64,000 bases of DNA from a virus (IMGVR_UViG_3300048854_000081:160001-224000); one strand, 5' to 3'. Counted from the first letter of the stretch, positions 10,045 through 61,744 are shown. Notes: a model not told the origin generated them from the sequence alone. Made by a program: numbers and translations.

Positions 10045-10371
10045 TTATCTGCGCCAGAACTGACCGCGCTGGATCGTGTCCTCACCTTCAACTCGGTTGA
10101 TGGATTGGGAACCCGTACCACCATCGTCGGTGAACTGTGGCTCGTGACCAGTGTTATATTCTGATTGATCGCTTGGTGAGTTTGTCGAACTGTTACCCAT
10201 CAAACCTCTAGCCCACGGCTCATGCTGTGGAACACGATTGGTCATCGGTGCACTATCAGCGTTAGATAGGCAAGCAGGGCTTGCAATCTTAGGCATTGAT
10301 GAGTTATACACCGGATCAATCGGGAAGGCAGGCATACCATTGACTACACCATCATTAACTACAATACTCAT
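10045..10371 (-). CDS. Small baseplate hub/spike-associated protein (resembles a detached C-terminus of the hub protein)
   Basis: RVPQHEPW motif; ATGA overlap with the upstream gp5-like gene. Confidence 0.5.
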   Translation of the reverse strand: MSIVVNDGVVNGMPAFPIDPVYNSSMPKIASPACLSNADSAPMTNRVPQHEPWARGLMGNSSTNSPSDQSEYNTGHEPQFTDDGGTGSQSINRVEGEDTIQRGQFWRR

Positions 10372-12914
10372 GGGATAATGGTTCCTCCGTTCAAGTTAAA
10401 GTTTTCATTCTGGAAAATCGAGGTCGCCGAACCCGGTAGTGGTGGAATTACCTGTGATTTAATCTGATCCAAGTTTATACATAGACCACTGTTGATCATG
10501 TTCATGATGGCTGTAAAGCCAGACGGTAATGCAATACCTTGTGATTCTAGAATTTGAATAATGGCTTGTGCATTGACTGGGAAGTTAATACCATGTCCAG
10601 TAATCAAGCTAATTGCAGCCATGGCAAGACTTGCGTAATATGCTAATGTGTTCAATTCTAGCGATATTTCATTGACCTTCGTTACCACACCAGCAAAATA
10701 TGGTGTAGAGAACTGTTGGCTCAACGAACCAATAGCCACGTCCTGTAGAGATTGTAAGCTAATACCATCAGTACCAATCTTAATGGACGATAGACCCGGA
10801 CATGCGCCAAAGATCAATGGTTCAGCACCAGTGATGGTGAACTCATTTGCGTCAAGACTCATTGGAGTCGTACCGGCACACATGTTATTGATTGCAGTAA
10901 CCGCAGGATTCATATTGTTGGCAGCAAGGTAGGTTCCAGCCGTATAGGTAGACCATGCTCTGAAGTTCTTACCGCTACCGGAAAATACGAAAGCTGCGTT
11001 TGCATTATATTGTGGATCGAATAGCTGATCCTTGACTCTCAAGGTATCTGGATAATTCCATTGAGTTGGATTTACCAGCGAACGAACCTGCCAGAAACCG
11101 CACGATGGACCCCATTTAGAATCCTGTAAACCAACGTCACCAATAGCGGTTGGGTTGAATCGTGATTCGGCACCCGAGATAGCCACGGCAATAGTCAAGG
11201 ACTGACCTCTGAAACCAGCATTCCATGCTACGCGAGCCGCTAGATCGGCACCGCTAAATCCTGCAATAGGAACCTGAGCCGGTAGATTACATGTGATAGC
11301 TGGAACCTGTGATTCGTCAGGGAATGGTGGTGCCTGCGCGGTAGGTGCATTCGTCTGCATCGTAGTGTTACCACCCGAAGCAATGTTCATATTACCGTTA
11401 GTAGAAATGTCAGCACCAGCATCACTCAACGAAATCTGCGAATTTGGAGTCTTAAGAACGATACCGCCTGTTCCACCAGAGTTTCCACCCACGCTTTCCA
11501 TAGAGAATCCACCACTGACGGATTTCATATTAATATTTTGCTGTGAACCAATGCTCATTTCACCAAAGTAAGAATAGAATTCGAAGTTACCTCTGGATGC
11601 GTACTTGGAACCAAGTATGGAGAACTCGTTAATATGTCCTGTGACGGCGACGTTTAGATCACCGTTGACAGTCAGATTGTAGTCACCAGCATTAGTAATA
11701 AAATCTACCTGACCTTGTACCTGCGTCTTGGATGTACCACCGACAGTTGTACAAGCATTTTCACCGATTTCAAAAATTGTATCTTCGAATGATAGCTGTC
11801 TCAAATTCTTGGAGACAAGATGCATATCGTCCTGTGACTGAATTCTAACTTGTCCTGAGGCTGGGGCTTCACTCATCTGTGGATTGGTGTTATCACCACC
11901 GGCATAGATGTACACACCATCCTTACCCTGAATACGCACCGTCTTTCCAGAGTTGATATTGATATCCATATCAGCATTCAATGAAATACGACGGGATGCA
12001 TAGGCATCAATGTTACCGGCTGAATCTAATTCAGCCCAAGCATTACCGGTATTGGTACGAACGTAAATTCTTTCATTAACGTCGTCTAAAATAATGGTGT
12101 GACCAGATGCCGAACGGAATCGTGTTCTGGTACTGGTCAAACGATCATCCATGGTTATCGAGGCAAAACCCGGCGTAGACCATGAGAATACTTTCGACGC
12201 CTTGATTGGAATACTACCATAACCCGACCAATCATAACCATCACCGCCTACAATATCCTTATTGAAAGCGAACTGCTGAGCGCCAGCAATATCTTGCTGG
12301 GTCTGATCGGTGTTTATTCCATCACTATTGGTTGGTTTTGCGCTTATTGCTGCTGCGGAATATTCAGCCTCGCGTGACTGCCACTCCGGAGAGTTGTTCT
12401 TGCCACCGTAGGCCATCTGTGCATTGCTGTACGCTGGTTCGATAGGGTTTCCCGATGAGGATAGGGGTCCATTGGCGGTACCGCCTGACGACCACTCATA
12501 GCGTCCATTGCCTATAGTGTGAACCTTCTGCTGATCAAAAATAACGCCAGCCCAGTAACGACGACGTAAGTCTCCGTCAATACAACCAACAAGCACGTTG
12601 GCACCAAGGTCTGGAATCGACCAGAAACCATAAGCTACTGTACCTTCGGTCTCGTGACCCATTCTTTCGTAACTACGGGAATTGATCGTGCCACCAAATG
12701 GTGAAACGTAAACACACCACGGTAGCTGGAATATCTTGGATGGATCATCACCATGTGAAGGACAAAATACTCTTAGGCGACCCATTTGTAGGGGGTCATC
12801 CGTGTCTACTACGATACCGGCTGTCATACCAGTAGTTACATGGAAATAGTCACCCTTGTTGTCTGTAGAATATCTTTTATCTAAGATATCCAACAGTTCG
12901 TCTTGATTCATCAT
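10368..12914 (-). CDS. Baseplate hub/central spike (gp5/VgrG-like) with an embedded lytic transglycosylase domain
   Basis: DTDDPLQMGRLRVFCP OB-fold, beta-helix repeats (SASGHTIILDD..ERIYV), SLT-like AISGAESRFNPTA..GFWQV..LFDPQYNANAA..AWSTY. Confidence 0.8.
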   Translation of the reverse strand: MMNQDELLDILDKRYSTDNKGDYFHVTTGMTAGIVVDTDDPLQMGRLRVFCPSHGDDPSKIFQLPWCVYVSPFGGTINSRSYERMGHETEGTVAYGFWSIPDLGANVLVGCIDGDLRRRYWAGVIFDQQKVHTIGNGRYEWSSGGTANGPLSSSGNPIEPAYSNAQMAYGGKNNSPEWQSREAEYSAAAISAKPTNSDGINTDQTQQDIAGAQQFAFNKDIVGGDGYDWSGYGSIPIKASKVFSWSTPGFASITMDDRLTSTRTRFRSASGHTIILDDVNERIYVRTNTGNAWAELDSAGNIDAYASRRISLNADMDININSGKTVRIQGKDGVYIYAGGDNTNPQMSEAPASGQVRIQSQDDMHLVSKNLRQLSFEDTIFEIGENACTTVGGTSKTQVQGQVDFITNAGDYNLTVNGDLNVAVTGHINEFSILGSKYASRGNFEFYSYFGEMSIGSQQNINMKSVSGGFSMESVGGNSGGTGGIVLKTPNSQISLSDAGADISTNGNMNIASGGNTTMQTNAPTAQAPPFPDESQVPAITCNLPAQVPIAGFSGADLAARVAWNAGFRGQSLTIAVAISGAESRFNPTAIGDVGLQDSKWGPSCGFWQVRSLVNPTQWNYPDTLRVKDQLFDPQYNANAAFVFSGSGKNFRAWSTYTAGTYLAANNMNPAVTAINNMCAGTTPMSLDANEFTITGAEPLIFGACPGLSSIKIGTDGISLQSLQDVAIGSLSQQFSTPYFAGVVTKVNEISLELNTLAYYASLAMAAISLITGHGINFPVNAQAIIQILESQGIALPSGFTAIMNMINSGLCINLDQIKSQVIPPLPGSATSIFQNENFNLNGGTIIP

Positions 12915-25712: not shown

Positions 25713-28607
25713 ATGGCAACCAATGATATCGATGTACAAGCATTAAGAAATGCTGTCAATGCGATGGCTAAAGCCCTAGGTGGGAATACCGGATTCAGCG
25801 GTGCCGCCACTGGCGGTAGGAGTAGTGCATACTCTTCCTATAAGAATGACGATAATAATGAGGTCGATTACGACAAGCTAAAGCGCATCATGAAAAATAA
25901 TGGTGACGTAGCTCAGCAGATATTAGTTACCTTAAAAAATGTATCAAAATCCAATAGTAAGATTGCCGATCTATATTCAGACCTAGAAAAATCTACTCGT
26001 AACCAGACCGATATCCAGAGAAAAGCTGCATTGGCACTGGCTGATTTCCTTTCCAAAACCAAGGATGTGACCGGTTCTTTGGAAAAAGTTTCCATTACAA
26101 TGAAGAAAACCAACGATAGTCTTAAGGGTAGCGATGCTGCCATTGAGGCTTGGCAGAAAGCCGTTGCCCGTCAACAGTTTCTACTAAAGCAGATGAATGA
26201 CTCGGAAGAGGCTTTCATTAAGAAGCGTAAGGAACTGGAAGAAAAGATTGCTAAGCAGACTGCTCAAAAGAAAGGCACAACGAAAACCAAGGAAGAATTG
26301 GCAGACGTTATGGATGAATTTGCCGAAGATGTAAAGGCATACCATGAAGAGCTAGATAAGAATAAGAAAAGTCTAGATGCCCTTGATGAATCCGTATCGG
26401 AAATTATCAAAAATTTTGAAGACCTAGATAAAATCACGAATACTCTTACTGCTGCACAGAAAGACCAGTTAAAGCGCTATAGAGATATGACCGCTGATCA
26501 GCGTAAAGCATCAGGCATCAATGATTCCCTAAAGGAAAGTATTGAAGGTCTAGATGGTGGTACCAAGATTGCAGCCGATAACATTGTAAAGAATTCTAAA
26601 ACTGCCGGTGACAGCTTGGTCAAGGCTGGTCAGTATGCATTAAAGTTCGGTAAACTATTGGTAGCCATGGTTCCCGGCTTGGTCAATGACATGCTTGCCC
26701 GTGATCGTTACAACGTTAGTACCCATGATTACAAGGGTGACATCGGTCGAGGTATCAGTGAGCAAGAGCGTGCACAGTTAATCGGTACCAACCGTAATAT
26801 TTTTAGATCATCCGGTGGTGGTGACGAAACCAAGGGCTTTAACAACTCGGCTGAATTGCAGAGAACCGCACATCTATTTGGTGTGACGGGTGCCGATGCT
26901 ATTAAGAAAGTACTAGAAACTCAACAGACATCTGCTGGATTCGGTGTTTCGTACGGTAACATTGCAGCCCAAAAGCTTCAGATGACCACCATGCGAGAAA
27001 TGGCTAAGCAGATTGGTGTGACTGATGATGAGCTTAAGGATTTCTATAGTTCGCTTCAGGATATGGGTCAGACTGCTGCTCTGAGTCAGAAGTATGCTGA
27101 TAAGAACGATATTGAACGTTCTAAGGCTATTAACAAGGAAATCTACGAAAGAACCCGATTGAATACTGCGTTGGGTATCAGCCTAGAACAGCAAAAGCAA
27201 GCTCAACAAGCCGCAGTTAACCAAAAATACGGTGGTATCGAATCCTTAATCAAAGGTAAGATTGGCGGTGATATATTAACCAAAGATTTTGAAAATAATG
27301 GTGGACAATTAACCGCCCGCCAAAAGCAATTGGTTACTGATAATATTCAGACCAAGGGTGCATATTTGACTGGTAAAGATGCCGATGATTATCAGTCGGC
27401 TGTACAGTCTATAGCCTCCCAGCGTTCCGGAAGATTACAAAAAGCCGGTGAAGCTAACTCTCAGGGTAACTATAGACCTTTAGCTGGTGAAGAAGCCAAC
27501 AATGCGATTTACAGTTCGTTAGGATTGGACGTTCAAGACTTTGACGTTACAAACTCTAAGAATGCTCAACAGCGTAAAGCTCAGGGTGAGAATGCTGTTG
27601 GTAATGCTTCATTTAATGACGTTCTTAAATCGGCCCAGTCATCCCTTGATGGTCCTGATGGCTTCACTGCTGCTGTCTATAATGCTACTGAAGCTTTGAC
27701 TGGTTTGAAGAAATCCCCAGTTGGTGACATTGCAGCATTTGTTGGTGGTGCTATTGCACAATATTTGGGACAAAAGGTTGTAGGTAAAGCTGCCGGATGG
27801 ATAGCAGGTAAGGTCGCTGGTACTGCCGGAGGTGCAGCCGCCGAAGGTCTTGCTGGAACTGTCGCCGGTGGAACAGTAGGTAAAGCTGCCGGTTTACTTG
27901 CTAAAGCTAAGGGTTTTGGTGCGAGAGGTATTGCCGGTGGTCTTGCTGCTTACGGTATCAATGCGCTCTATGGTGATGCGGATACATTATCCGAAGGTAA
28001 TGATGACTTAGGATCACAAGCATTGCGCGGTGGCGATTACGTAGCCAATGCTGCCATGGGTTCAGGTTTCCTTCCAGCCATGGCATTAGGTGGTACGTAT
28101 AAGGTCGCAACGCGTGCTGGCAACTCCATTCAAAAACAATTAGCTAAATCCTCTACCTTCAATGATCTATCTGACGTTGCCTTTGGTTCTACCATTGGTG
28201 GTGTTCAGGCATTGTTTGGTGGTGATAAGGCTGGTTGGAATCAGGCGAAAAGTGGAGCTTATTCACTATCCAACAGTGTTAGATCACTTGTTGGTCTAGA
28301 CCCATTAAGCCAATCCACAGGTACAAACAACTTCGTACCACCTCAGGCTGGTCAAACTCCTAACCAGACATTGAATAATCAAATTATGCAGCAGGCTCAG
28401 CAGGCTCTATCTAATGGTGATGCCGATAAGGCAACGAAATTACTAGAGTCTATCGCTAAGTCGAATGCGGAAATGAATAGCCGTGACGATAAGGATGCCC
28501 AACAGAAGGCCGCAGAACAGCAGGCTAACATTGGTTCGGCTTACTCTGAATACGCTAAACACTTGGATGGCGTATTTGGGTCGGTCAGTCACGGTACTGC
28601 CGCTTAA
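25713..28607 (+). CDS. Probable tail tape-measure-like virion protein
   Basis: 964 aa, coiled-coil N-terminus, Gly/Ala-rich C-terminal half, late promoter at 25682. Confidence 0.55.
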   Translation: MATNDIDVQALRNAVNAMAKALGGNTGFSGAATGGRSSAYSSYKNDDNNEVDYDKLKRIMKNNGDVAQQILVTLKNVSKSNSKIADLYSDLEKSTRNQTDIQRKAALALADFLSKTKDVTGSLEKVSITMKKTNDSLKGSDAAIEAWQKAVARQQFLLKQMNDSEEAFIKKRKELEEKIAKQTAQKKGTTKTKEELADVMDEFAEDVKAYHEELDKNKKSLDALDESVSEIIKNFEDLDKITNTLTAAQKDQLKRYRDMTADQRKASGINDSLKESIEGLDGGTKIAADNIVKNSKTAGDSLVKAGQYALKFGKLLVAMVPGLVNDMLARDRYNVSTHDYKGDIGRGISEQERAQLIGTNRNIFRSSGGGDETKGFNNSAELQRTAHLFGVTGADAIKKVLETQQTSAGFGVSYGNIAAQKLQMTTMREMAKQIGVTDDELKDFYSSLQDMGQTAALSQKYADKNDIERSKAINKEIYERTRLNTALGISLEQQKQAQQAAVNQKYGGIESLIKGKIGGDILTKDFENNGGQLTARQKQLVTDNIQTKGAYLTGKDADDYQSAVQSIASQRSGRLQKAGEANSQGNYRPLAGEEANNAIYSSLGLDVQDFDVTNSKNAQQRKAQGENAVGNASFNDVLKSAQSSLDGPDGFTAAVYNATEALTGLKKSPVGDIAAFVGGAIAQYLGQKVVGKAAGWIAGKVAGTAGGAAAEGLAGTVAGGTVGKAAGLLAKAKGFGARGIAGGLAAYGINALYGDADTLSEGNDDLGSQALRGGDYVANAAMGSGFLPAMALGGTYKVATRAGNSIQKQLAKSSTFNDLSDVAFGSTIGGVQALFGGDKAGWNQAKSGAYSLSNSVRSLVGLDPLSQSTGTNNFVPPQAGQTPNQTLNNQIMQQAQQALSNGDADKATKLLESIAKSNAEMNSRDDKDAQQKAAEQQANIGSAYSEYAKHLDGVFGSVSHGTAA

Positions 28608-40961: not shown

Positions 40962-41396
40962 ATGTCGGAAGAAATAGTCCGAAGATCAAAGCAGATCATC
41001 GTTATACGTAAAGATTTAAAGATGCGTAGAGGTAAGGAAGTTGCTCAAGGATCGCATGCCAGTATGGGTGCTCTTCTTAATAAGATGAGCAGATGCATCC
41101 ATGTAGTACCGAAGTCAGAAGAATATGGTGTCGCAAGGTGCTTGAATTTCATGAGCACTTCTGCTATGTTCGACTGGATCGAGAATTCATTTACCAAAAT
41201 CTGTGTGTACGTGAACTCTGAACAAGAGTTGGTCGATTTACATTTTGCAGCGGTGCAAGCATCGCTTCCTAACTGTTTGATCACGGATAGTGGTGCTACC
41301 GAATTCCATGGTGTTCCAACTAAGACGGCTCTAGCCATAGGACCAGCTTGGGATGATGAGCTTAAACCGTTAACCGGTCATCTACCTCTACTGTAA
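40962..41396 (+). CDS. pth2: Peptidyl-tRNA hydrolase, PTH2 family
   Basis: KQIIVIRKDLKMRRGKEVAQGSHA, ITDSGATEF, TALAIGP, TGHLPLL. Confidence 0.92.
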   Translation: MSEEIVRRSKQIIVIRKDLKMRRGKEVAQGSHASMGALLNKMSRCIHVVPKSEEYGVARCLNFMSTSAMFDWIENSFTKICVYVNSEQELVDLHFAAVQASLPNCLITDSGATEFHGVPTKTALAIGPAWDDELKPLTGHLPLL

Positions 41397-42408: not shown

Positions 42409-43035
42409 ATGTACTATACGATTTATAAGACTACCAACTTGAAAAATGGTAAGTATTATTTGGGTATGCATCAGACTAAAAATTTGGATGATGGATATAT
42501 CGGATCAGGAAAATTGCTCCGACGTGCGATTGAAAAATATGGATTTGATTCTTTCAAGAAAGAAATTCTTTTTGTATTTGACAATTCAGCCGACATGTAT
42601 ACTAAAGAACGAGAGTTAATAACGGAGGATGAAATTAAGAACCCTCTTTGTTACAATCTTGCTCCGGGTGGTTGGGGTGGGAATAGAATTATAGATAAAA
42701 CTCACAAGGTATGGTCAGTTGAACACTTTGTGATGATGCATGAAATTCTTAGTGAAAAGATCAAGAACGATCCACGTACTAAGGAAATTTTTAAGAATAA
42801 TGGGTTGAGGATGGCCGCAGTTATTAATAATGGCGACTACCACAATCCACGTATGACCGGTAAGACTCACAAGGATTCTACCAAAGAAAAAATGAGATTA
42901 TCAAAAGTCGGAAAAGTAAATGGTGTTGATAATCCAAGCTATGGTACGATGTGGATTACTGACGGTATCAATAATAGAAAGGTCAAGAAAGATTCTATTA
43001 TTCCCGAAGGCTGGCGTAAAGGAAGAAAGTTTTAA
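42409..43035 (+). mobile_element. Free-standing GIY-YIG (Seg-like) homing endonuclease
   Basis: TIYKTTNLKNGKYYLGMH..GYIGSG..AIEKYG; NUMOD3-like GKTHKDSTKEKMR; WITDG..PEGWRKGR. Confidence 0.88.
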
Positions 43036-43968: not shown

Positions 43969-44063
43969 GGGCAAGGTACCCCGTATGGAATCGGGGATTT
44001 AGCTGAAAAGCTAAAATACTGCAAACTCAACAATTGTAGGTTCGAATCCTATCTTGCCCACCA
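43969..44063 (+). tRNA. Atypical class-II-like tRNA with 8-nt anticodon loop CTGAAAAG (Phe-like GAA)
   Basis: GGGCAAG/CTTGCCC acceptor, canonical T arm, ACCA; TTTAG-CTGAAAAG-CTAAA. Confidence 0.6.
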
Positions 44064-44200
44064 TTTGTACTCGCTACTATTTCATGCAAATGATCTTCTG
44101 TAGTGCCAAATCCTAGAGGTCTGGACCCAATGTCATTTTCTTAGTTACTAAGATATTAGGTGAAAACTAAACTGAGCGCACCACAGCGAGAAGTGGACCA
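44061..44200 (+). ncRNA. Candidate ~140-nt stable RNA ending in ACCA
   Basis: 5' CCATTT..CTCGCT pairs with 3' AGCGAG-AAGTGG, followed by ACCA. Confidence 0.45.
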
Positions 44201-44205
44201 GTTTT

Positions 44206-44281
44206 GGACAGTTAGCGCTCTGGTGATTGCACGGGTCTGTTAAACCCGGTTAGGTGGGTCCGATTCCCACACTGTCCGCCA
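44206..44281 (+). tRNA. tRNA-Asn(GTT)
   Basis: CGGGT-CTGTTAA-ACCCG, GCCA. Confidence 0.85.
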
Positions 44282-44335
44282 TTCATAGTTAGCTGATAGG
44301 TATAAATACATGGGTAACCGTGAATTTATCAGCTA

Positions 44336-44974
44336 ATGAAAATAGAAGATGTAGATTTAGAAACACTGAAAAGAGTTGTATCAGAAAATAAATCCAAAAG
44401 GCAAGTCTTACTTTATTTTGGGATTTCTAGTAAGAATGGAAATCAGAACGCTAAACTAGATCGAATTATTAAAGATAATAATATAGAGTCATCCCATTTC
44501 TCTAGAGATAAAGATTTTTCTATAATAGATAGTATTATTAGTACATGTGTATCTTATAAAGATATTGGTGTAAGAATGGGCATAGCACATGATGATAAAT
44601 CCATGCATGCCAGTTATTATACTAAGATCAGAAATTATATAGAATCTAACAATTTAGATATTTCACATTTTAATGATGGTGGTAGATATCATAATGCCGG
44701 AATACGATATTCATTAGAAAATATATTTGTTGAAAAATCTGAAGTGTCTAAACAAACACTAAAGAAAAGATATATAAAATATAGAATTGAAAATGATATA
44801 CAGGTAAGTTGTTGTGACCGATGTAGGATAAGCGAATGGATGGGTGATCCTCTAAGTTTGCAGTTAGATCATATCAATGGTACAAATGATGATAATAGGA
44901 TTGACAATCTCAGATTGATATGTCCTAATTGTCATTCACAGACAGAAACGTTTGCTGGTAAAAATAGAAATTAA
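44336..44974 (+). mobile_element. Free-standing HNH homing endonuclease
   Basis: CDRC..LQLDHINGTNDDNRIDNLRLICPNCHSQT; AT-rich relative to flanks. Confidence 0.88.
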
Positions 44975-44984
44975 AGTTTAATGT

Positions 44985-45113
44985 TCTTCAGTAGCATAGT
45001 GGCCTAATGCATCGGACTGTGGATCAAGACGTAAAAGCGTCCAAGGCTAGTGCAAGTCTAGTAGATCAAAGATAATCCGGGGATCGTGAGTTCGACTCTC
45101 ACCTGAAGAGCCA
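44985..45113 (+). tRNA. tRNA with a 52-nt insertion in the anticodon loop, most likely tRNA-Asn(GTT)
   Basis: TCTTCAG/CTGAAGA acceptor + G73 CCA; anticodon stem TCGGA/TCCGG separated by 59 nt. Confidence 0.7.
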
Positions 45114-45148
45114 GATTTAGTAAGACCAAAGTATGTAGAGTACTTTGG

Positions 45149-45226
45149 GGTGTCGGTGATGGAATTGGTAGACATGACGCACTGTGAATGCGTATTTTGC
45201 GGGATCGTACCCCGTCTGGCACCCCA
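45149..45226 (+). tRNA. tRNA-His(GTG)
   Basis: G-1:C73, ACGCA-CTGTGAA-TGCGT, CCA. Confidence 0.85.
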
Positions 45227-45244
45227 AAGTACTTTAGGAATAAT

Positions 45245-45364
45245 ATGAATATTAAAATGATTTGGAATAAGACACTTGGTGTTATGAGTGATTTATTCGA
45301 TACGGTATTCACAGCAATCGATGCCATAGCTTCACTTTTTGATGGTATTGACATCGACGATTAA
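45245..45364 (+). CDS. Small 39-aa amphipathic peptide
   Basis: AGGA SD; MNIKMIWNKTLGVMSDLFDTVFTAIDAIASLFDGIDIDD fills the gap between tRNAs. Confidence 0.45.
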   Translation: MNIKMIWNKTLGVMSDLFDTVFTAIDAIASLFDGIDIDD

Positions 45365-45368
45365 ATAC

Positions 45369-45443
45369 GGGATTATAGCTCAAAGGCAGAGCAAGTGGCT
45401 TTTAACCACGAGGTTGAGATTTCGAAATTCTCTAGTCCCACCA
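45369..45443 (+). tRNA. tRNA-Lys(TTT)
   Basis: GTGG-CTTTTAA-CCAC, ACCA. Confidence 0.85.
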
Positions 45444-45449
45444 TTTTAC

Positions 45450-45525
45450 GGAACGGTAGCTTAACTGGTAAAGTCGCTGACTCTTAATCAGCTTGATGTG
45501 AGTTCGACTCTCACTCGTTCCACCA
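45450..45525 (+). tRNA. tRNA-Lys(CTT)
   Basis: GCTGA-CTCTTAA-TCAGC, ACCA. Confidence 0.88.
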
Positions 45526-45530
45526 GACAT

Positions 45531-45555
45531 AAAAGCACCCTCAGGGTGCTTTTTT
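45531..45555 (+). terminator. Terminator closing tRNA cluster 1
   Basis: AAAAGCACCC-TCA-GGGTGCTTTTTT. Confidence 0.85.
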
Positions 45556-45583: not shown

Positions 45584-46408
45584 ATGCATTGGATTCTCCA
45601 AAATAATCTCTTCAATGAAGCTGCCTACGCCACTCTTCTTGAGACGCTAGAGCGGTTCTCCATTCCATACTCTATCCACAAGGTTGTCCCCTTCGTAGGT
45701 GAGCTTGTCCCTGAGCCTACCATCGATCATAAGAATGTGATCTGTATGGGTTCCTACTCCCTCCGTCATGCTGCCAAGAAAGCTGGCTGGAATCCCGGTG
45801 TCTTTGACCTTGAGCCTTTCAACTTTCAGGTCCAACTTGAGCACTGGGGTGACCACATGCTCAATGCTGATGCCATTGTTTGTAAGTTTAAGGACGTTGA
45901 CTTTGAGGGTGAACGCTTCATCCGTCCTATCGAAGACAGTAAGGTATTTGCTGGAAACGTCTTTGACCGTCTATACTTCAAGGACTGGCAACACAAAGTT
46001 TGTGATCTAGAGGAAGACTATGGTAATTCGCTTACCAAGGACACTCTGGTTCAGGTCTGTCCACTAAAGCAAATTTATGCCGAGTACCGATTCTGGATTG
46101 TCAATCAGAAGATCGTTTCTGCATCACTCTACAAACGTGGTGATAATGTAATATATTCTTCGGACGTTGATCAGCGGTTCCATAATTATGTGAATCAGAT
46201 TTTACGTACCAAGAATCGAGTAACAGATATCACGTTGAGTGTAGAGAACAAAGGGTGGGCACCACATGATGCGTTTGTCATCGATGTGGCTGATACCGAC
46301 CAAGGATTGAAGGTAGTTGAAATTAACACTTTGAATTCCAGTGGATTCTATGCTTGTAACCTAACCGATTTGGTTTTAACTCTTGAAAGAGAATTTAATA
46401 ATGATTAA
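45584..46408 (+). CDS. ATP-grasp domain protein (R2K-like)
   Basis: FIRPIEDSKVFAG, EYRFWIV, FVIDVA..KVVEINTLNSSGFY. Confidence 0.8.
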   Translation: MHWILQNNLFNEAAYATLLETLERFSIPYSIHKVVPFVGELVPEPTIDHKNVICMGSYSLRHAAKKAGWNPGVFDLEPFNFQVQLEHWGDHMLNADAIVCKFKDVDFEGERFIRPIEDSKVFAGNVFDRLYFKDWQHKVCDLEEDYGNSLTKDTLVQVCPLKQIYAEYRFWIVNQKIVSASLYKRGDNVIYSSDVDQRFHNYVNQILRTKNRVTDITLSVENKGWAPHDAFVIDVADTDQGLKVVEINTLNSSGFYACNLTDLVLTLEREFNND

Positions 46409-52538: not shown

Positions 52539-52670
52539 GCCCTTGTAGCTCAGTTGGTAAGAGCGCGTAGAACGCCGAAAGGCTATATTCTGTTAAGAAT
52601 ATGTACCGCATCCACTTCATATCATGCTAAGATCGAGGTCGTTGGGTTCGAATCCCAGCCAAGGGCTCCA
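52539..52670 (+). ncRNA. tRNA-like RNA (132 nt) with the anticodon arm replaced by an extended multi-hairpin insert
   Basis: GCCCTTG/CAAGGGC-T-CCA acceptor, canonical D arm and T loop; insert has GCC-GAAA-GGC and ATATTCT-GTTA-AGAATAT hairpins; TTGACA promoter at 52496. Confidence 0.65.
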
Positions 52671-61669: not shown

Positions 61670-61744
61670 GCTGGTATCATATAACGGTAGTATGATTCTT
61701 TTGTAAGGAATTCGTGACAGTTCGATTCTAGTCTATCAGCACCA
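61670..61744 (+). tRNA. tRNA-Thr(TGT), bulged T stem
   Basis: ATTCT-TTTGTAA-GGAAT, ACCA; TATAAATA at 61654. Confidence 0.7.

Follow-up and report, generated by a model that had tools for sequence, protein, structure and literature searches.

The interrupted tRNA gene and its surroundings

The DNA studied here comprises bases 160001-224000 of a 350,036-bp phage record from IMG/VR (G000), which was estimated to be complete using CheckV. This stretch of 64,000 nucleotides is called the window below, and positions are counted from its first base unless another record is named. An interrupted tRNA gene was found at 44985-45113 (+), within a long array of tRNA genes on the same strand. ARAGORN called 16 tRNAs in the window and 43 in the G000 genome. 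An intact second tRNA-Asn(GTT) was located in the same array at 44206..44281 (+), recognized by both ARAGORN and Rfam (43.4 bits); it has G1-C72, G73 and an atypical T loop (TCCGATT). Because of this uninterrupted gene, the phage does not strictly need the interrupted copy. A free-standing HNH homing-endonuclease gene (212 aa, 44336..44974, +; Pfam HNH PF01844, E 6.8e-5; phrog_10822, E 2.4e-39) ends 10 nt upstream of the interrupted tRNA.

Megablast of the region 44200-45550 against GenBank phages gave no match, and blastn of the locus against the same phages returned HNH and tRNA-Lys fragments only. Exact scans of viral contigs with the insert core, with the 5' exon and with the predicted spliced junction of an intron-less allele were all empty, and these scans thus revealed no presence/absence polymorphism for this exact tRNA.

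Other genes were noted in the same region. The tRNA array is flanked by genes for a PTH2-type peptidyl-tRNA hydrolase (40962-41396) and an R2K-clade ATP-grasp protein (45584-46408), and a SegE-like GIY-YIG endonuclease gene (42409-43035) lies inside it.

Splice register and identity of the tRNA

The Rfam tRNA model (RF00005) matched 44985-45110 end to end (model positions 1-71) with 48.7 bits and an E-value of 2.3e-7 in the 64-kb window, well in excess of the gathering score of 29 bits. The Rfam alignment placed a single 55-nt insertion within the anticodon loop, which direct reading of the sequence refined to 52 nt. The 5' exon (44985..45020, +; Rfam tRNA alignment, R1 covariance model 98.1 bits) holds the 5' strand of the acceptor stem, the D arm, the 5' strand of the anticodon stem and the start of the loop. 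The 3' exon (45073..45113, +; direct reading and Rfam) continues with U36, A37 and A38, the 3' strand of the anticodon stem, the variable loop, the T arm, the 3' strand of the acceptor stem, G73 and the CCA end (45111-45113). The acceptor stem reads TCTTCAG/CTGAAGA on direct inspection; the exons thus carry U1-A72, and G73 and the encoded CCA are as in the other tRNAs of the array. In the anticodon arm, TCGGA (45012-45016) pairs with TCCGG (45076-45080), and the loop is divided into CTGT (45017-45020; C32 U33 G34 U35) and TAA (45073-45075; U36 A37 A38). Joining the exons at 35/36 gives the loop CUGUUAA and a 77-nt tRNA that ARAGORN calls tRNA-Asn(GTT). With default settings ARAGORN missed the interrupted gene, and with introns allowed it made an implausible His call with a 33-nt intron.

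The original prediction had held that the excision register was open and would set the identity of the tRNA. Its arithmetic was correct when the 52-nt deletions were recomputed: GTT results from removal at 35/36, GTG from removal at 36/37 or 37/38, and GAT from removal at 33/34 or 34/35. It was also right that Asn at 35/36 is consistent with U1-A72 and G73. The tRNA-Asn identity set of the E. coli type consists of the GUU anticodon and G73, with U1-A72 typical in bacteria, while tRNA-His identity requires G-1 and C73. The phage's own tRNA-His (45150-45226) has G-1/C73 and its own tRNA-Ile has A73. The body of the interrupted gene lacks G-1/C73 and so does not fit His, and its G73 does not fit Ile; the idea of an open register is therefore not upheld. 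In a related contig of 349,660 bp, tRNA-Asn genes without the intron read ACTGTTAAT, against which only one alignment is possible because the insert begins with G and ends with A. The same type of intron was further found in Lys-like bodies with A73, where CUUU|..|UAA gives UUU at the same 35/36 site. From U1-A72 and G73, the GUU of the intron-less relatives and the Lys members at the same site, the interrupted gene is a predicted tRNA-Asn(GUU) gene, 35/36 being the only register that fits the body, and charging accordingly is predicted. Removal in another register, yielding a tRNA for His (GUG) or Ile (GAU) codons, is permitted by the deletion arithmetic but is exceedingly improbable: besides the missing His (G-1/C73) and Ile (A73) determinants, the intron-less homologues carry GUU, and the same shift would turn the A73 tRNA-Lys-like members into Gln (UUG).

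Fold and class of the insert

The insert, a putative intron of 52 nt (45021..45072, +), starts with an unpaired G (45021). A closing helix, P1, is formed by GATC (45022-45025) and GATC (45064-45067) and encloses a variable middle hairpin, GACGT-AAAA-GCGTC (45028-45041), and a T-arm-like hairpin, GCTAG-TGCAAGT-CTAGT (45046-45062); a 5-nt tail, AAAGA (45068-45072), follows. This three-way junction, as drawn in the original prediction, was exactly the minimum free energy fold, with covariation across 18 homologues in P1 and the T-arm-like hairpin, while the middle hairpin was not conserved. The folding energy of the insert was not better than that of shuffled sequences (z -0.74 and -0.99), so the case for structure rests on comparison and not on thermodynamics.

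No Rfam intron or ribozyme family was matched at E<=10 over 44900-45250, where the only non-tRNA matches were two at chance level on the neighbouring tRNA-His. A group I intron, which has a conserved P3-P8 catalytic core and usually measures at least 200 nt, was rejected on the length of 52 nt and the lack of a match to the Rfam group I model (RF00028), in line with the earlier judgement that the insert is too short for this class. Small self-cleaving ribozymes (hammerhead, twister, pistol, hatchet and others) were likewise rejected after no covariance model gave a match at E<=10. In a bulge-helix-bulge (BHB) motif, two 3-nt bulges separated by a 4-bp helix mark the splice sites. By inspection, the splice sites of the phage insert are instead found on opposite sides of an asymmetric internal loop (5' CUGU^G, 3' AAAGA^UAA) that sits between the anticodon stem and P1, and a BHB intron was accordingly dismissed.

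A family of small putative introns in phage tRNA-Asn and tRNA-Lys genes

Related inserts were sought by gapped-pattern scans of viral and metagenome contigs, followed by the covariance model R1. The first gapped scan, based on the interrupted Asn anticodon arm, gave two further cases in viral contigs. In total, 18 distinct interrupted tRNAs of the same architecture and with the same insertion site were collected from huge-phage and metagenome contigs (alignment A3), including a tRNA-Lys(UUU) member of contig L082, and BLAST combined with R1 added four members in cultured phages beyond these 18. The scan patterns fixed ACTGTGG and AAR-TAAT, and conservation of the junction bases is therefore partly circular for the pattern-derived members, but not for those found by BLAST or the covariance model. 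The strict pattern gave 10 matches in contigs of cellular genomes, none of which was a tRNA according to R1.

All members follow a common plan. An unpaired purine precedes P1 (4-6 bp), which encloses a middle segment, either a hairpin or a AAGGUAAA-like strand, and a hairpin with a 7-nt loop; the latter borders directly on the 3' strand of P1, after which the insert ends in a tail of 5 nt (AAAAG, AAAGA, AAAAA or AACAG). The site lies between nucleotides 35 and 36 of phage tRNA-Asn and tRNA-Lys. The window copy conforms to this plan (CUGU|52 nt|UAA; R1 E 2.7e-21), although with 98 bits it is the lowest-scoring Asn member with intact exons, the others reaching 108-132. It is divergent in its 4-bp P1, a G at the position equivalent to T-loop 55 and a middle segment without GG, which counts against reading it as a working intron. 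With its T loop UGCAAGU, it resembles the Lys-type introns of Agrobacterium phage Atu_ph07 and contig L082.

Across the 18 sequences, two-sided changes were seen in five of the six P1 pairs (89% of cells paired) and in four of the five pairs of the T-arm-like hairpin (88% paired), and all exon helices covaried. None of 500 shuffles reached the observed covariation, and paired cells fell from 94% to 33-47% when the 3' partners were slid by 1-3 columns. Fitting of the alignment to the model biases it towards the structure, but the slid controls carry an equal bias. A covariance search in other phage tRNAs, which the original prediction had suggested as a check, helped to uncover a family with a conserved structure. 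Lack of such conservation had been named as one sign of a pseudogene, and the strong covariation of the closing helix and the T-arm-like hairpin makes a decaying pseudogene unlikely. Together with the Rfam score, the covarying insert helices bear out a real tRNA with a structured 52-nt insert in the anticodon loop. Judged by architecture and covariation, the insert belongs to a conserved family of small phage introns in tRNA-Asn and tRNA-Lys.

The 3' hairpin retains the signature of a T arm, with equivalents of G53-C61, U54, C56 and A58, and GG occurs in 16 of the 18 middle segments, as in a D loop. The original prediction had noted neither this T-loop character nor the upstream HNH gene. Counted by hand, the 3' strand measures 12 nt in most members and 11 nt in the window when taken from the T loop to the base that faces intron nucleotide 1; tRNA positions 61-72 amount to 12 nt, and the 4 nt after this strand equal the length of N73-CCA. 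By these sequence likenesses the intron is a miniature of the acceptor/T-arm half of a tRNA.

Further interrupted tRNAs were detected when the plain Rfam model was run on contigs that are related to G000 or carry Asn introns. A 32-nt hairpin interrupts an Asn gene at 33/34 or 34/35; two Ala(UGC) genes, both with G3-U70, are split as UUUGC|..|AA; a Thr(UGU) gene is likewise interrupted; and there are larger inserts that contain an 8-bp stem and a canonical T arm. In each of these, the flanks rebuild the anticodon expected from the tRNA body, which argues that the inserts are removed.

Interrupted tRNAs in cultured phages

Cultured-phage members were retrieved by BLAST with one family member and then evaluated with R1. 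In Sinorhizobium phage phiM12, the intron-bearing tRNA-Asn (KF381361.1 94960-95080) is annotated as a pseudo 'tRNA-OTHER' truncated at 95036, and the same interrupted gene is present in phiM7 and phiM19. Atu_ph07 (MF403008.1) carries three unannotated interrupted tRNAs: an intron-bearing tRNA-Asn at 323902-324023, an intron-bearing tRNA-Lys(UUU) at 68156-68280 and a third gene at 335105-335213. Salicola phage SCTP-2 has an intron-bearing tRNA-Asn at MF360958.1 298729-298850.

The genome of Atu_ph07 was published with tRNAs for all amino acids but Asn and Thr (PMC6102473). The unannotated interrupted tRNA-Asn fills the Asn gap, which is circumstantial support for use of the gene. Standard tRNA finders evidently miss such genes, as illustrated by the 'lack' of tRNA-Asn in Atu_ph07 and the pseudo 'tRNA-OTHER' of phiM12, and phage tRNA repertoires, along with the codon-usage arguments that depend on them, are consequently incomplete.

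Neighbouring homing endonucleases

Full-length homologues of the window HNH protein were found in L051 (41% identity, E 3e-49), where the gene lies 56 nt from an interrupted tRNA, and in L115 (34% identity, E 4e-33), where the distance is 735 nt. An HNH-domain homologue in Atu_ph07 (51% identity, E 1e-22) is encoded 67 nt from the interrupted tRNA-Lys, and an annotated homing endonuclease lies 83 nt from the third interrupted tRNA of this phage. In phiM12, an HNH gene overlaps the 3' end of the interrupted tRNA; the interrupted tRNA of L088 is preceded, at a distance of 5 nt, by the end of a GIY-YIG gene; and in L052, an HNH or GIY-YIG gene is found near such a tRNA. Several loci, e.g. L082, had no endonuclease gene near the intron. 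The HNH half of the window protein is widespread (207 phage records, none full-length), and a relative of the HNH domain occurs in an array of uninterrupted tRNAs in L153; both observations weaken the idea that this HNH family is specific to intron-bearing tRNAs. The evidence is suggestive of the HNH gene as a candidate partner for mobility or immunity at the DNA level, with the insert interrupting the endonuclease target.

RNA ligases and splicing enzymes

The original prediction had pointed to genes for RNA ligases and endonucleases elsewhere in the genome. The search of G000 was successful for ligases, with two members of the Rnl2 family (PF09414), and unsuccessful for a splicing endonuclease. 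EndA (PF01974) gave no match in G000 at E<=0.1, with a positive control in four archaea, and RtcB gave none. Rnl1 (PF09511) was also unmatched in G000, in a search whose control likewise gave none. Without EndA and RtcB, G000 offers no candidate splicing endonuclease, which is a point against protein-dependent splicing of the insert.

One of the two ligases, P0001 (344 aa; G000 about 297450-298484, L118:1000-2034, outside the window), is a fusion of an N-terminal HNH motif (CxxC...AHH...N...CxxHH) to an RNA ligase with the motif KMDGEN. Neither ligase of G000 had a sequence match in the PDB. Such an HNH-RNA ligase architecture has been noted in jumbo phages by Iyer et al., and RNA ligases are common in these phages (PMC7824862). 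PF09414 matches were present in all seven other complete or near-complete intron-bearing genomes searched, in six of them above the Pfam cut-off. Full-length homologues of P0001 were confined to two related contigs of jumbo phages, G003 and G007. The ligase-only form was found in G006 and Atu_ph07, as well as in XacN1 and Phosso; in Atu_ph07, the 214-aa protein is 45% identical to the ligase part of P0001 and is encoded about 1 kb downstream of the interrupted tRNA-Lys on the same strand. Annotated CDS lengths of 340-360 aa suggest the same fusion in Caulobacter phage CcrBL9, Ralstonia phage RsoM2USA, Salicola phage SCTP-2 and Acinetobacter phage ME3. The P0001 ligase subfamily is rare (24 of 50,697 phage records), was not found in the intron-bearing genomes G001 and G008, and coincides with the intron in only one of ten further jumbo phages that carry it (SCTP-2). 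The subfamily does not track the intron, and the fusion, considered as a dedicated splicing enzyme, was rejected as a specific correlate. A ligase is thus available in G000, and a dedicated splicing ligase is a candidate only.

Proposed splicing of a tRNA-shaped intron

We consider it probable, on comparative sequence grounds, that the insert is a protein-spliced and possibly mobile intron with the shape of a miniature tRNA, residing in a functional tRNA-Asn(GUU) gene. Among the three functions initially proposed (a protein-spliced intron, a nuclease-protected precursor ligated after cleavage, or an anticodon-nuclease decoy), the first is the one favoured by the comparative data. The intact second tRNA-Asn speaks against splicing in so far as nothing forces the interrupted gene to work. 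In the proposed pathway, the precursor would be cut by protein or ribonucleoprotein endonucleases at U35|G and A|U36, and an RNA ligase would rejoin the halves to give the 77-nt tRNA-Asn. The closing helix would take the part of an acceptor stem, followed by a variable middle segment, a T arm with its T loop and a few single-stranded nucleotides at the end. As a DNA element, the insert probably travels with the adjacent free-standing HNH gene, or protects against its product, by interrupting the conserved sequence of the anticodon loop.

As for the enzymes, we tentatively propose that cleavage is performed by those that read the tRNA elbow, with RNase P making the 5' cut and an RNase Z-like activity the 3' cut, an assignment that is possible but rather doubtful. 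Bacterial RNase P is suited by a U at -1 and a purine at +1. A tRNA-like minihelix that serves as substrate for RNase P and RNase Z has a T loop and about 12 layers of stacked acceptor and T stem, and is cut 5' of layer 12 and behind the discriminator. By hand count, most members have a stack of 12 layers and the window copy one of 11, and the 5' site fits RNase P. The 3' site is located 4 nt past the end of the helix and not after the discriminator, and RNase P/Z cleavage fits it less well than the 5' site. Such cuts would leave a 3'-OH and a 5'-phosphate, which an ATP-dependent phage ligase of the Rnl2 family could seal without end healing. Taken as a whole, a third route of tRNA splicing in phages, in which a mini-tRNA intron recruits RNase P and an RNase Z-like enzyme, is resealed by a phage ligase and spreads with HNH or GIY-YIG endonucleases, is offered as a speculative possibility.

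Alternative explanations for the conserved insert

The RNA could be made and never spliced. Acting as a decoy or sponge, it might then draw off anticodon nucleases of the host or defence proteins that bind tRNA, directed at tRNA-Asn and tRNA-Lys, or it might be a nuclease-proof store of tRNA. tRNA-Lys is a known target of PrrC-type anticodon nucleases, and confinement of the family to Asn and Lys tRNAs would suit this role, as would the intact tRNA-Asn in the window and the failure to find EndA or RtcB in G000; the conserved structure of body and insert fits any function at the RNA level. We nevertheless regard it as rather unlikely that the RNA stays unspliced. In every case the two parts of the loop together make a proper loop of 7 nt that holds the cognate anticodon, even in members whose junction was not constrained by the search, and an encoded CCA, G73 and a perfect acceptor stem are needless in a decoy. 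In addition, Atu_ph07 has no other tRNA-Asn according to its authors (PMC6102473). Alternatively, the insert could be a small DNA element, a homing-endonuclease footprint or immunity cassette, that breaks up the target of the enzyme and thereby inactivates this tRNA copy, its hairpins serving the DNA level or the spread of the element. This would be in keeping with the close upstream HNH gene, with HNH or GIY-YIG genes, which are 0-70 nt from interrupted tRNAs in Atu_ph07, phiM12 and L088 and also lie in their vicinity in L051, L052 and L115, and with the spare tRNA-Asn in the window. Yet dead genes would not be expected to retain covarying exon helices and good tRNA scores across very divergent phages, and RNA-specific T-loop positions and G-U pairs are preserved in the hairpin. 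Endonuclease genes are missing from the surroundings of several loci such as L082, and L153 combines an HNH-domain relative with an array that has no interrupted tRNA. A purely DNA-level role is thus improbable; a footprint or immunity cassette is, however, compatible with the favoured reading, a protein-spliced intron, provided that the insert is also spliced.

The conserved three-way junction with its conserved unpaired purines also brings to mind a new, very small self-splicing or self-cleaving ribozyme, given that small ribozymes built on three-way junctions exist, such as the hammerhead. This is very unlikely, as no Rfam ribozyme was matched at E<=10, the hammerhead core is absent from the junction strands, and two precise cleavages plus ligation by about 50 nt are without known precedent. 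Moreover, what is conserved corresponds to a T loop, a motif for docking of protein or RNA, and not to a catalytic core.

Relation to known systems

The textbook view, to our knowledge, is that bacteria and their viruses have only self-splicing (group I) tRNA introns, protein-dependent tRNA splicing being archaeal and eukaryotic. The protein-spliced introns of archaea and eukaryotes, processed by EndA/Sen and RtcB or Trl1, are similarly short, non-catalytic and located in or near the anticodon loop, but they have a BHB and lie at 37/38, whereas the phage intron has no BHB, lies at 35/36, brings its own T arm and comes without an EndA or RtcB match. Bacterial group I introns are known from cyanobacterial tRNA-Leu and tRNA-fMet and from alpha-proteobacterial tRNA-Ile and tRNA-Arg, and are ribozymes of at least 200 nt. 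They also interrupt tRNA genes of the bacterial world in the anticodon loop, and some are mobile with a homing endonuclease; the phage insert differs by its 52 nt and the absence of an Rfam group I match.

Several parts of the proposed pathway have counterparts elsewhere. In T4, anticodon loops cut by PrrC are healed by Pnk and sealed by Rnl1. The final reaction envisaged for the intron is of the same kind, two tRNA halves being united within the anticodon loop by an RNA ligase of the phage; in T4 it serves damage repair and not removal of an encoded insert. Excision of tRNA-like elements by RNase P and RNase Z is known from mitochondrial tRNA punctuation and from mascRNA, which is released from MALAT1. 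There too a tRNA-shaped module within a longer RNA sets its own excision sites, but the flanks are not known to be rejoined, while those of the phage intron would need ligation. Collaborative homing between a free-standing endonuclease and an ORF-less intron has been described for the nrd genes of T4-like phages and for cyanophage psbA. As in those cases, the endonuclease gene adjoins the intron that interrupts its likely target and is not inside it; the nrd and psbA introns are, however, group I ribozymes in protein genes, and the target of the phage HNH is putative.

The closest precedent is that of the 'enigmatic' tRNA introns of Lak megaphages, whose mechanism is unknown (Devoto et al. 2019, Nat Microbiol, PMC6784885), and in the literature searched for a described mechanism or family this was the only one. 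Like the inserts described here, they are short, not group I, located in the anticodon region of phage tRNA genes and conserved between phages, and one of them (tRNA-Thr UGU) possibly itself encodes a tRNA (PMC6784885). The Lak phages differ in their gut Prevotella hosts and in using another genetic code, and their description, which is the basis of this comparison, does not include a structure family, covariation, a splice register, Asn/Lys specificity at 35/36 or the endonuclease neighbourhood (PMC6784885). As far as the literature searched shows, the family definition, the covariation, the site rule and the mechanism are unpublished. A ribozyme-less intron of 45-55 nt in cultured Sinorhizobium, Agrobacterium and Salicola phages would make the splicing agent testable at the bench. 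Should the anticodon loop be shielded by the intron until late in maturation, this would represent a new move in the conflict between phage and host over tRNA cleavage.

Other unusual tRNA genes

Additional tRNA genes with unusual features were observed in the contigs surveyed. In one 99-kb viral contig (L012, L016, L017, L019, L020), no fewer than five tRNA genes, among them Asn, Thr and Ala, have anticodon-loop inserts of 60-94 nt, each containing an 8-9-bp stem and a canonical T arm, i.e. larger introns of the 'tRNA inside tRNA' kind. L003 encodes two GUU-anticodon tRNAs (10240-10333, 94 nt; 10870-10952, 83 nt) with an extra hairpin in the variable region, and L051 1952-2090 combines a class-II-like body and long variable arm with the same mini-intron at 35/36.

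Within the window, a tRNA-like gene of 132 nt at 52539-52670 (+) has a perfect acceptor stem (GCCCTTG/CAAGGGC), a D arm, a T arm, U73 and CCA, with the anticodon arm replaced by about 71 nt that include a GNRA hairpin and a long hairpin with the loop region CUGUUAAG. It scored 34.4 bits with R1 and was called neither by ARAGORN nor by Rfam at the gathering score. A 95-nt tRNA-like gene with CCA at 43969-44063 (+) scored 26.7 bits with R1 and was interpreted by ARAGORN, with introns allowed, as tRNA-Cys(GCA) with a 16-nt insert adjoining the anticodon; the boundaries of this insert are ambiguous because CTG is repeated on both sides. A normal tRNA-Cys is found elsewhere in the G000 genome. At 61670-61741 (+), directly upstream of tRNA-Thr(TGT), Rfam recognized a tRNA (42.7 bits) that ARAGORN missed. 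Finally, two adjacent tRNAs with CUA anticodons (amber suppressors) are encoded at G000 26819-26975 (-), outside the window, which suggests possible read-through or recoding of TAG in part of the phage genes.
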